A stretch of DNA of 63,869 bases, the filler included, from Collodictyon triciliatum (lineage: Eukaryota): assembly GCA_043381765.1 (NCBI GenBank). It is 5 parts of 5 records of this genome, joined end to end, with 100 filler letters (N's around TTAATTAATTAA, not from the genome) between each part and the next. Parts side by side here need not be neighbours in the genome. Positions count along the whole stretch, not along the records: positions 1 to 29,998 come from JBHJMP010000649.1; positions 30,099 to 34,514 come from JBHJMP010000651.1; positions 34,615 to 54,024 come from JBHJMP010000652.1; 2 more parts are not named here. One strand, given 5' to 3'. Numbering within the stretch: the stretch's first letter is position 1; each line of letters opens with the position of its first letter. The translations under genes and the position numbers were made by a program. This document shows positions 27,052 to 50,869 of this stretch, in pieces. The notes under the pieces are model-generated. The model saw only the letters and a list, made by a program, of their open reading frames with translations. It did not search any database and was not told where the DNA came from.

Positions 27052-29899
27052 GAAAAAGAAAGAAAGAAGAAAGTCATGCTTACAAATATGTCTGAGTTAT
27101 CTGATTCATGGCACAATAAATGCCAGAAGTAATTATAATGTGAGGCTATGTCTGAAATTGAACCTGAGACTGACATAACAGCCTCTGCTCGGTCTTGAAA
27201 AACAAATAATTTATCCATCTCTAAACAAGGTGTAATAATACCGGTCATATATGTGTTAAATATTTGGACCCAATCGACCAGCCCATCGCCACCATTCTGG
27301 ATTGAAGCTGGCTCGGAGGATTTATGGGGAGAACGGAGCATTAGGTCAAGAAATTCTTCAAGAAACCAAAATAAGAACTGGTCTATGCTCTGTATCATTT
27401 GAATTTGTTCTGCTTCGTTTTGCATTCTTCGAGGAAAAGTGACGAGCAATTTTGTAAACTGATTCGTGTAAACATAAGAGTCTGGTAGATTGGTCTGCAA
27501 AAATCGAATACATTCCACAAAGACTTTATGGAATTGAGCAGTATTTTCTACCCTGTAAAACTTGGGTAAAAACATCTCAAAGCAGCGAGAAATCAATCTC
27601 TGGGGCCGGGTGACTTCGTCGAGACCAAACAATATGCATGAGACCAAATATGCGTAAATCCGTTTCAAATATAAGCAGGCTTGATTTGTGTTGCTAATGC
27701 TGGATTCCATCTCTTCACTCAGAATAGACAGCACATGTTTCCGAGTTAATGCACTGATTTCATTGCTTATATCCTTAAAGAACTGGGCACTTGATTTAAT
27801 TTCTCTGCAGTCAAAAACAGTCGGGAGTATAAGCTCCATTACAGATGGGTGACAAATAACCTTTCTCAATATGACCGTAATGGGGCTGCTCTCAACGAAT
27901 GAATAATGAAAATAACTCATCTGGTCATTGGCGTCTCTCTCTTGACTTTTCCAGAGTTGGTCGGCAACATGCAAAAGTGGTGGGAGCAAGTGTTGAAGAT
28001 ATCTTTTTAATAGTGATGTTGATTGAAGGCCCTGAACAAAATCGAAAATCCTCATTAAAGGATGATGTAGACCAAGTTCCATCACAAAAGGATCTTGAAG
28101 AAGTTGCAGAAATGAGGGATAAGAGTCGCTATTAGGAAATTTTATTAAATTTCGTTGGTGTAAATGAATGTAGCCCAAACTGTTAAAAAAAAAAGAGAGA
28201 GAAAGAGAAAGAGAAAGAGAAAGAGAAAGAGAAAGAGAAAGAGAAAGAGAAAGAGAAAGAGAAAGAGAAAGAGAAAGAGAAAGAGAAAGAGAAAGAGAAT
28301 GGCGACTCCCTCAAAGTTACCTTCCGTTTGATAGCTTGAAATAAGGAGATATTATGTCTTCAAAGATCGAAAATTTTGGAAAATCTATATTTTTCCGTCA
28401 AATATTGTAAACCCGCGTAAGTTAAATACTTCAAAACAGATAATATTCCAGGCTGAGTCATTTCAATAAATGAATAATTGTAAAAAAAATAAATAATAAA
28501 TATTATTTCCGATTTTGCCATGATGCAAGGGAGACTAGAAATTAAAATAGAAATATACGTGTATAAGAGCTCAGAACGATGGGAAATAATTCGATGGATA
28601 TGCGACAAGTTTCACTTTTGTTTCTTTTGTCCTCTTTTGCTATTACTAGAATCTGGTTCAATTTTCCATTCGTCTCCAATATAGCATCTGTTTTGCTGTG
28701 GCCAGACCACAAATTATTCATATCCATGAAAATCAAATGAAAAAAAAATTATTAAAAAACTTAAATTGATATCATCTGAAAATAAGTGAGTTTGTCACAC
28801 TCAGTTCAATGATGATAAGAATGGGTTGTTATGAAATGGGGTGGCAATTTAATCACCTTTGGACAGATGAACCAACGATTTCCTCGAAAGCTTTCTTGAA
28901 GAATGTGGAACGAAAATTATGCGTAGTCTCGCGTAGGCAATCAGAAATCCAGATAGTGAGAGGAAAATGAGGACCCTCATTCAAGTTCATCATTCCTAAT
29001 TGAATAAAATTTTGATAAGAGACGAAAAAATATAAAGAAAAATTAAATGGAAGAATAAGATTTCGTCAAAATTATTTTTTCCTTTATTCGATTCAAAGTA
29101 TTCGTCAAAATTATTTGAATAGGAGAGATATCAAGTAATGGTTGTTTAATAATTGATAAAAAAAAAAATCAAACTTTTTAATATATGAGCGCAAATATGA
29201 CTGGAAAAGGTTGAATTTGATGCCTCTGTGTACTGGAAGAGCTCGTTTACGGCATAAAAGGGCGCTTTCTTTTTATTGTACTCATTAAGAATATAATGGC
29301 CCTTTTTTCTTTTCTTTTCCAAATGTGAATTATGTTCATGATTAATACCAGAATCATTTTTCTCGGAAAGACTATCTAGTCCTCCAGCTAGCTTCGGAGT
29401 TAAAATTGAAGCAAAGATGGCTATTATGTCATCAACCAATTCAGGTCTCTTTAGCAATAATTTTTGAATTGCCATTTCCACCACTGTTTTTTGATCGGAT
29501 GGATATCTGTCACGAACCAAGTCTCCCATTTGCCTCATGAATTCTGTTGGCCCTTCGGATGCTTTCAAGCTCCAAGATTCCACCTGATTATAGAGTATGT
29601 AAATATGTCATTAGAAATCTTTTTGATGAATGTAAATGAAATCATTAATATATCGAAAATAGGCATAATGAAATTTTAAAAAAAGGCAGAGAGAGGTGTC
29701 GGAATCAGCTGAGAACATTTATAGAATTGAACAATTAGTTGGGGACTAGCAGGAGATATATTGTTACAAGATTTTGAAGAACTCCTGGGTTTGATATGGG
29801 ATTAATATCCGCCAAACCAAAATAAGATTCATAATCTAAATTATTGCTTGAGAATTCTTGCGGTAATTCGTTAGGTTCGTCTTTTTCGGCCACAGGTTC
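25630..29899 (-). CDS. Unidentified large multi-exon, helical-repeat-like protein; both ends lost in gaps
   Basis: Several GT-AG-bounded exons, including a long one at about 27080-28180 and others at 29349-29583, 28858-28996 and 25630-26070. No motif I recognise. Confidence 0.65.
26954..27049. repeat. (AAT)n intronic microsatellite
   Basis: Direct reading. Confidence 0.95.
28196..28298. repeat. (AAAGAG)n intronic microsatellite
   Basis: Direct reading. Confidence 0.95.
29078..29100 (-). mobile_element. Ultra-short retroposon-like insertion, copy A (intronic)
   Basis: Plus strand: TTCGTCAAAATTATTT (29062-29077) - tttCCTTTATTCGATTCAAAGta - TTCGTCAAAATTATTT (29101-29116). Perfect 16-bp direct repeat. 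Confidence 0.85.
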
Positions 29900-29924
29900 C
29901 TTTATATGAATATACAATACAAAA

Positions 29925-29955
<31 letters not shown>

Positions 29956-29998
29956 AAGAAGAAGAAGAAGAAGAAGAAGAAGAAGAAGAAGAAGAAGA

Positions 29999-30098
29999 NN
30001 NNNNNNNNNNNNNNNNNNNNNNNNNNNNNNNNNNNNNNNNNNTTAATTAATTAANNNNNNNNNNNNNNNNNNNNNNNNNNNNNNNNNNNNNNNNNNNN
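29999..30098. other. Artificial scaffold spacer N44-TTAATTAATTAA-N44 (also at 34515-34614, 54025-54124 and 62398-62497)
   Basis: Identical 12-mer with stops in all six frames, centred in 100-nt N blocks four times. Several flanking genes are truncated there. Confidence 0.95.
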
Positions 30099-30193
<95 letters not shown>

Positions 30194-49898: not shown

Positions 49899-49974
<76 letters not shown>

Positions 49975-50234
49975 CTCTCATTTTTATGATTCAAGTTTCT
50001 AAACCCACACCCGCAGGCATCGCAGACAGCCAGTGGAGGCAGCCCCTCACCAAGCTCTCCAGAGACTCCTCTGCGTCCATCCAGAGAACAGCCCGCGACG
50101 CATTGGACCGGCCGTGCATTTCCCCAGCGCAACAGCCGCAGCAGCCGCCGCCTTTATGCTCCGTTCTTCCGGGCGAGCAAAGCAACGAACCTGCAGACTC
50201 CGACGCCGCCTTGTCTGGAGCGCCATCTCCCTAG
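45405..50234 (+). CDS. PPP4R1: Serine/threonine-protein phosphatase 4 regulatory subunit 1-like HEAT-repeat protein
   Basis: Spliced exons include LSKDEIWGIRKACAE, DFSRWVRFSASENLGPFL, CAYSFSAILNMLGRDRWREVQPTFDLLVKDLQVRVRKCMA, HWRARKDIV, LATDRIFKVRSVA and LCEDHVTDVR, collinear with PP4R1 as I recall it. Confidence 0.85.
47745..47768 (-). mobile_element. Ultra-short retroposon-like insertion, copy D (PPP4R1 intron)
   Basis: ATGGAAGCTTCAGCTT (47729-47744) - ttcctc CCTTTAATCGATTCAAAG - ATGGAAGCTTCAACTT (47769-47784). 16-bp repeat with one mismatch; decayed tail. Confidence 0.8.
49520..49970. repeat. Polypyrimidine (T5-8CTC)n and (CT)n tract in the last PPP4R1 intron
   Basis: Direct reading; contains an N gap. 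Confidence 0.95.
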
Positions 50235-50593
50235 CATCCGCCCTGGGCTTATCCTCGCCAGCTAATCCACCTCTCCTGTCGTGTTTTTATTTCCTTTACT
50301 TTACTTTTCTTTCCTTTCGCTCCGTAAAACTACACCACCAGAATCACTTGATTTTTACTACTATTATTATTATTATCATTATCATAATAAAGAGAAACGG
50401 ACAATTAGTATAAAAAAAAATCAGCGTTGGTGAAATCTCAACCAAATGAGTCCTTTGTTCCCTTGCTGATCTTTTGTGGAAATTATTATATTCTCCGATT
50501 TCGCGAGCTCAAAAATGCTTTCGTTGGGCGCTCGACCTTTTTTTCTTTTTTGTTTTGTTTTACATTGTGGTGATGTATTAGCAAGTACGTGTT

Positions 50594-50618
50594 TTTTTTC
50601 CTTTATTCGATTCAAAGT
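50594..50618 (-). mobile_element. Ultra-short retroposon-like insertion, copy C (intergenic)
   Basis: GCAAGTACGTGTT (50581-50593) - T6 CCTTTATTCGATTCAAAG t - GCGAGTACGTGTT (50619-50631). 13-bp repeat with one mismatch. Confidence 0.85.
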
Positions 50619-50869
50619 GCGAGTACGTGTTAATGGATGCTTGATTTGGGTGGCAAAGCCCCGTTTCCTTTTTTTTCCATCCCCCTTTCTCAAGTCATCC
50701 CCACGTAATGGAATCGAAGAAATATAAGTGATAAACAAAAATAAAAGAAAAGAAAAGTGATAGACATTAAAGATAATAATAATAATAAAAAACTCTCCAG
50801 ACAATTCAAACCTGTTTAAAATAACCATTACAACGGAATGTAGACGTAAGGAAAGCTGCACACACTATA

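Follow-up and report, generated by a model that had tools for sequence, protein, structure and literature searches.

We analysed a stretch of 63,869 nucleotides (filler included) from Collodictyon triciliatum (assembly GCA_043381765.1), referred to in its whole length as the window. It carries six copies of a very short element, an 18-nucleotide (nt) unit, CCTTTATTCGATTCAAAG, with a run of T or a T-rich remnant on its 5' side. All unit coordinates are given on the plus strand; the element itself reads on the minus strand, where every copy consists of the unit followed by an A-tail. Matches to the 18-mer with at most two mismatches lie at 29081, 30242 and 50600 (0 mismatches each), at 40178 and 47751 (1 each) and at 39393 (2), compared with 0.01 matches expected in the window, and none of 100 shuffles reaches six. 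They are the same six sites, T-run included and with 0-2 mismatches, that an earlier note on this DNA had reported, and permitting three mismatches adds no further copy in the window. The T-run comprises 6, 8, 11, 6 and 8 T in five copies and is degenerate (TTCCTC) at 47751; on the element strand the tail is accordingly a pure A-run of 6-11 in five of six copies and GAGGAA in the other. The unit contains the hexamer AATAAA, and 4 of its 108 positions, pooled over the six copies, are substituted. The sample behind every copy-based claim made here is these six copies in a single window. They are arranged as follows (TSD, target-site duplication), together with one possible relative:

29062-29116, minus strand: copy 1; TSD at 29101-29116, extra nucleotides TA, unit at 29081-29098, A-tail, TSD at 29062-29077; 16-bp TSD with 0 mismatches
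30217-30278, minus strand: copy 2; TSD at 30260-30278, unit at 30242-30259, A-tail of 6-8, TSD at 30217-30235; 19-bp TSD with 1 mismatch
39371-39422, minus strand: copy 3; TSD at 39411-39422, unit at 39393-39410 (2 substitutions), A-tail of 10-11, TSD at 39371-39382; 12-bp TSD with 2 mismatches
40172-40195, minus strand: copy 4; unit at 40178-40195 (1 substitution) and A-tail of 6, inside an A/G-rich low-complexity run; no recognisable TSD
47729-47784, minus strand: copy 5; TSD at 47769-47784, unit at 47751-47768 (1 substitution), GAGGAA, TSD at 47729-47744; 16-bp TSD with 1 mismatch
50581-50631, minus strand: copy 6; TSD at 50619-50631, extra nucleotide A, unit at 50600-50617, A-tail of 6-8, TSD at 50581-50593; 13-bp TSD with 1 mismatch
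40215-40228, minus strand: candidate remnant of a further copy, perhaps older and degenerate, keeping roughly the final 10-14 nt of the unit and an A-run, at 20 nt from copy 4; weak evidence

Direct repeats stand beside five of the six copies, and their lengths (16, 19, 12, 16 and 13 bp, with 0, 1, 2, 1 and 1 mismatches) reproduce exactly the values that had been given for them before. We scored each repeat against 29,541 pairs of unrelated flanks drawn from the window. The true repeat was equalled or exceeded by no pair for copies 1 and 2, by 1 pair for copy 5, by 11 for copy 6 and by 235 for copy 3; four of the TSDs are far beyond chance. Another null, built from 20,000 random positions at identical spacing, yields 2-6% for the TSD copies and 47% for the copy at 40178, the 2-6% arising because microsatellites mimic repeats at that spacing. 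The repeats of different copies had been described as unrelated to one another, and our cross-control agrees: the left flank of one copy compared with the right flank of another scores at most 5, while true pairs score 4-16.

In the five TSD copies, 0, 0, 0, 1 and 2 nt separate the TSD from the unit, and the TSDs contain mismatches at 5 of 76 pooled positions. The TSD junction has a pyrimidine at -1 and an A at +1 in all five copies and an A at +2 in four of them, a tally that comes from a small sample in which the start of the TSD is ambiguous against the A-tail. The consensus site of the L1 endonuclease is TT|AAAA, which the Y|AA junction of the copies resembles. The A-tail, the variable TSDs and the L1-like nick site fit target-primed reverse transcription (TPRT) by a long interspersed nuclear element (LINE) of the type that encodes an apurinic/apyrimidinic endonuclease (APE). 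We also note that the TSDs at 29062-29077 and 39371-39382 have the 7-mer TTCGTCA in common (TGACGAA on the element strand), adjoining the unit on its 5' side, which may be coincidental or point to a second-strand site preference.

The copies plausibly sit in introns and intergenic DNA. They are distributed over four N-separated pieces of the window, where three scaffold pieces had been counted before. Of the 62 kb of non-N sequence, a span of 21.6 kb contains all six (p ~0.02), and they have one orientation, with the 18-mer on the plus strand (p ~0.03); this clustering on one strand may reflect chance or a regional bias. The copies at 29081, 39393 and 50600 are found about 50-270 nt downstream of the ends of minus-strand open reading frames (ORFs), in sense orientation, so that their AATAAA could be a poly(A) signal. 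Both the hexamer and these three positions would suit an origin at the DNA level without any reverse transcription, i.e., the footprint of a DNA transposon, an insertion templated during repair, or a conserved element of the host with a role in regulation or polyadenylation. However, the TSDs of DNA transposons are fixed in length and those found here range from 12 to 19 bp, the A-run that closes each copy varies in length, the flanks of different copies are unrelated, and the same sequence forms the 3' terminus of an element that encodes a reverse transcriptase (RT), as described below. We consider a DNA-level origin very hard to credit.

We scanned public collections of prokaryote genomes, viral contigs and metagenome contigs with five T followed by the 18-mer. 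There was no match in the prokaryote genomes, none in the viral contigs, and one in the metagenome contigs, on the 1157-bp contig L001. This contig consists of an AT-rich flank (28% GC), a run of ten T, the 18-mer and then DNA of 51% GC. On the minus strand of the 51%-GC part, a frame stays open between the contig end and position 549, and its product has a zf-RVT zinc knuckle (E-value 1.5e-7; 32.4 bits against a cut-off of 27.5). Of 188 residues aligned between this ORF and the protein P0015, 182 are identical, and P0015 runs on in the neighbouring frame of L001 at 205-606 (81 of 86 residues identical). As P0015 spans two frames of L001, the contig is frameshifted and the ORF truly ends near position 205; P0002 terminates at the equivalent place. 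The 18-mer lies about 75 nt after this ORF2 stop (~205), at the extreme end of a short 3' untranslated region (UTR). The L001 LINE has the 18-nt unit as its final 18 nt, i.e., a 3' tail common to the unit and the LINE. Relative to P0015, the frameshift falls at ~600, in the C-terminus of ORF2, and the L001 copy of the LINE is itself defective. A word-index protein search with the L001 ORF gave no matches, and no loci encoding P0015 relatives were confirmed in the prokaryote genomes and viral contigs.

A HMMER search with the L001 ORF retrieved 14 representative relatives at an E-value of at most 1e-3. All four of P0009-P0012 (1226-1275 amino acids) have both Exo_endo_phos and RVT_1 domains; P0009 matches human LINE-1 ORF2p with an E-value of 3.4e-57, and P0015 aligns to its residues 975-1196. 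The residues C, C, H and C are invariant in an alignment of eight sequences. The contig L001 carries the C-terminus only, and APE and RT are seen only in the distant full-length relatives (22-25% identity; four of four) and, for APE, in the N-terminus found nested in the protein P0023. Because of the zf-RVT knuckle, the relatives with APE and RT and the match to LINE-1 ORF2p, the parent element is probably an L1-type LINE (APE, RT and CCHC zinc knuckle). The LINE family of L001 is multi-copy in several sources.

The protein P0023 (195 amino acids), which comes from a different source than L001, was retrieved with the antisense read-through frame of L001 and gives a second view of the junction. 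It reads ...RIFLF-LYSIQS-VARLCHTKG..., in which LYSIQS is the 18-mer in frame and the F/L codons before it are the T-run. Its C-terminal 88 residues are nearly the same as in L001 (85 of 88 identical, 97%), whereas the part before the T-run codons is unlike L001 and is instead an APE endonuclease N-terminus that shares 48 of 113 residues with the start of P0009 (E-value 9e-27). Since P0023 switches sequence at the T-run, it represents a second LINE copy that ends at the same base and is nested in another LINE. The earlier note had proposed looking for an RT-encoding LINE that ends in the 18-mer and poly(A); such a LINE is thus found in metagenome DNA, on L001, with a second junction in P0023. 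The many N gaps and the apparently artificial linkers (TTAATTAATTAA) in the stretch might raise the suspicion that the unit is a library adapter or an assembly artefact. But all copies are clear of the gaps, the closest by 144 nt, the units carry substitutions and the TSDs have diverged, and the 18-mer with its tail recurs in an independent metagenome assembly (L001) and its translation in a second one (P0023). The chance that the family is an artefact is practically negligible.

These findings suggest that the six elements are, with good probability, retrocopies made by TPRT from the very 3' terminus of an L1-type non-LTR (long terminal repeat) retrotransposon. An L001-type LINE would then be present now, or have been present formerly, in the genome from which the window comes. 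The LINE endonuclease would nick the target at a Y|AA-type site, and the liberated T-rich 3' end would base-pair with the LINE RNA at its poly(A) tail. The RT would then copy the last 18-20 nt only, and the short cDNA would be joined to a second nick 12-19 bp off, which would generate the TSD. Inserted copies would afterwards decay neutrally. Having neither promoter nor coding sequence, they are probably dead on arrival, as opposed to being a mini-SINE (SINE, short interspersed nuclear element) that propagates itself. The divergence of the units (4/108) is similar to that of the TSDs (5/76) and so fits neutral, dead copies. Of the reading offered by the earlier note, the signature of TPRT holds (A-tail, TSDs of variable length, L1-like nick site), whereas the independent mobile unit of 23-28 bp is not supported in that form: the copies, being the last 18 nt of a LINE 3' UTR with neither promoter nor head, are better taken for tail-only, dead-on-arrival LINE copies. 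We also considered a spliced leader and rejected it, as the unit lies at the 3' end of the LINE beside the poly(A) and not at a 5' end.

Several observations weigh against the interpretation as LINE tails. The copy at 40178 has no TSD (11,118 of the 29,541 null pairs score as well), and the repeat 39371-39382/39411-39422 of copy 3 is marginal. In the window there is no remnant of the LINE ORF2 at an E-value below 1, either with a hidden Markov model of eight relatives or in phmmer searches with six proteins, and none of the rest of the L001 sequence by blastn. The L001-type LINE is known from metagenome contigs and not from the window, so that we infer its link to C. triciliatum. Only the junction of L001 is seen as DNA, that of P0023 being seen as translated protein only. 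The single match in outside DNA is attached to a LINE (1/1) and is not tail-only, which speaks mildly against tail-only copies dominating everywhere. Finally, all six copies share one end point, as opposed to the spread of lengths from ordinary 5' truncation, and we found no cause for it. The 18-mer alone has no stable fold (minimum free energy, MFE, of 0.0), and the folding of the 3' region of L001 is no stronger than that of shuffled sequence (z of -0.53 and +0.57). The Rfam search for a ribozyme just upstream of the unit in L001 returned four matches, all far below the gathering threshold, and ARAGORN detects no tRNA-like element in the window or L001.

All six copies begin 0-2 nt from the same base; when L001 is compared with the window by blastn, the alignments end at L001 positions 127-131 in six of six copies, and no window copy reaches into the L001 UTR beyond the unit. 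We searched the window for shorter copies of at least 10 nt with four T plus the first 10 nt of the unit and found none except the doubtful site at 40215, which has 2 mismatches to this query; chance alone would yield 2.08 matches of that quality in the window. Heavy 5' truncation is the usual fate of LINE copies, and typical LINE families show a broad spread of copy lengths. Ordinary stochastic truncation, with the shared end points as an accident of a small sample or a bias of detection, would agree with the first of these generalities, and copies shorter than about 10 nt would go undetected by the searches used. Longer copies, however, are detectable by both the 18-mer search and the L001 blastn, and none exist in the window; the search for shorter ones gave nothing beyond the one doubtful site; and six of six end points within 2 nt are unlike a broad distribution. 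Stochastic truncation is therefore a highly improbable account of the pattern. A hairpin as the cause of the fixed end was also rejected: one MFE fold has a 5-bp stem, but the 18-mer has no fold of its own, as given above, and shuffles fold at least as well.

The fixed end could come either from an RT stop or template switch at a set position, or from a template that is itself a short, discrete piece from the 3' end of the LINE RNA. The extra 5' nucleotides (TA in copy 1, A in copy 6) are compatible with both. The second possibility can be carried further. A discrete RNA species, some 18-19 nt long and followed by poly(A), might arise from processed LINE or read-through transcripts and be mobilised in trans repeatedly, in which case the copies would be an entity of their own (a "nano-SINE") and not failed LINE copies, and the LINE RT would need this terminal module alone. 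That all six copies have one 5' end within 2 nt, with none longer, points in this direction, as does the presence in the window of six tail-only copies and none with LINE body. The extra TA and A could be non-templated additions at a true RNA 5' end; TA is not a full match to the CA that precedes the unit in L001. On the other hand, we found neither a source transcript nor a promoter, and no sign of processing in the form of a ribozyme, a tRNA-like element or a stable fold; the inserted copies cannot be transcribed as a unit themselves, the only unbiased outside match is LINE-attached, and the sample is again six copies from one window. We therefore regard repeated mobilisation of such an RNA as a tentative alternative. 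Equally doubtful is the form that its template might take, in which the 18-19-nt module plus poly(A) would be, e.g., a protected 3' footprint of the LINE ribonucleoprotein or a specific cleavage product, taken by the L1-type RT as a full template.

Returning to the interpretation as tail-only LINE copies, it is useful to compare them with known systems. They are like the dead-on-arrival copies of L1-clade LINEs in their A-tail, variable TSDs of 12-19 bp, Y|AA nick site and neutral decay, and in their identity with the 3' end of an element that has APE, RT and zf-RVT. Unlike those copies, they show a truncation that is extreme and uniform, with 18-20 nt in six of six cases and no intermediate lengths in the window. 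A second comparison is with SINEs that share the tail of a partner LINE. The eel element UnaSINE1 is a SINE whose 3' tail is common to it and its partner LINE, UnaL2, and SINEs are roughly 80-500 nt long. The present family resembles this pair in being a short non-coding unit that has the 3' terminal sequence of a partner LINE and is inserted with TSDs. In contrast to tail-sharing SINEs, the 18-nt unit is without head, body or internal RNA polymerase III promoter, and there is no sign of its being transcribed on its own. A search for a SINE head (tRNA, 7SL, 5S or snRNA) with a polymerase III promoter found none, ARAGORN and Rfam being empty in both the window and L001. Given the absence of head and promoter and a length of merely 18 nt, the unit is not a SINE. 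Thirdly, where L1-type machinery mobilises other poly(A) RNAs in trans, processed pseudogenes being one outcome, insertion likewise depends on poly(A) for TPRT and produces TSDs; unlike processed pseudogenes, the 18-nt family is repeated and matches a LINE terminus, not a cellular mRNA. The copies are thus of an already known kind, LINE 3' tails inserted by TPRT, and what distinguishes them is the extreme and uniform truncation. In the openings of the abstracts that our literature searches returned, there is no description of an 18-nt LINE-tail family or of the unit sequence, which is weak evidence of absence.

The significance of the family depends on whether its length is as uniform in the rest of the genome as it is here. 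If the 18-20-nt length holds genome-wide, the LINE either has a set position at which it stops or switches template or relies on a processed RNA of very short length, and the insertions form a class too short for repeat annotators to notice. A fixed stop or a short template, if true, would define in nature the minimal 3' sequence that an L1-type RT needs. Should the template be a discrete RNA, no retroposed unit shorter than this one would have been described, and the unit would reveal, in a natural setting, the least template that an L1-like RT requires; the same-strand clustering within 21.6 kb would then hint at a strand- or replication-linked insertion bias. If the uniformity is merely local, the copies are an ordinary by-product of LINE activity. 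The copies spread AATAAA and A-runs through gene-rich DNA in one orientation, and this could affect polyadenylation.

A further insertion of interest lies at 33087-33383 on the minus strand. It is a 285-nt insert, richer in GC, with an A-rich tail, a 12-bp TSD (AAATAGGAGAAA) and a T|AAA junction, and it has no relation to L001. The insert is probably a retrocopy too, be it part of a processed pseudogene, a SINE or a truncated LINE from a different family, and its having the same T|AAA junction suggests that the machinery acted on other RNAs here too. Generic scans of the window for other short insertions with TSD and A-tail returned only the 18-nt family, this one 285-nt insert and matches at chance level.

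The remaining features of the window concern its assembly and its genes. At four gaps (30043-30054, 34559-34570, 54069-54080 and 62442-62453) the 12-mer TTAATTAATTAA stands between two runs of 44 N, with microsatellite sequence beside the gaps; with a stop in each of the six reading frames, the 12-mer resembles an artificial linker used in scaffolding. Pfam matches in the window comprise a TOR-type FAT domain, cyclin, uS13, YhhN, GT5 and GT92. The GT5 match belongs to a single open frame of 621 amino acids at 42137-44002 on the plus strand, a very divergent GT5 starch/glycogen synthase; a word-index protein search gave no relatives of this ORF, and its best match in the Protein Data Bank has an E-value of 1.9e-10. 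At about 9780-24400 on the minus strand, exons of a TOR-type kinase gene extend across many microsatellite-rich introns. The FAT domain of this gene is at 12254-12694, and FRB- and kinase-like peptides can be recognised in it by eye.

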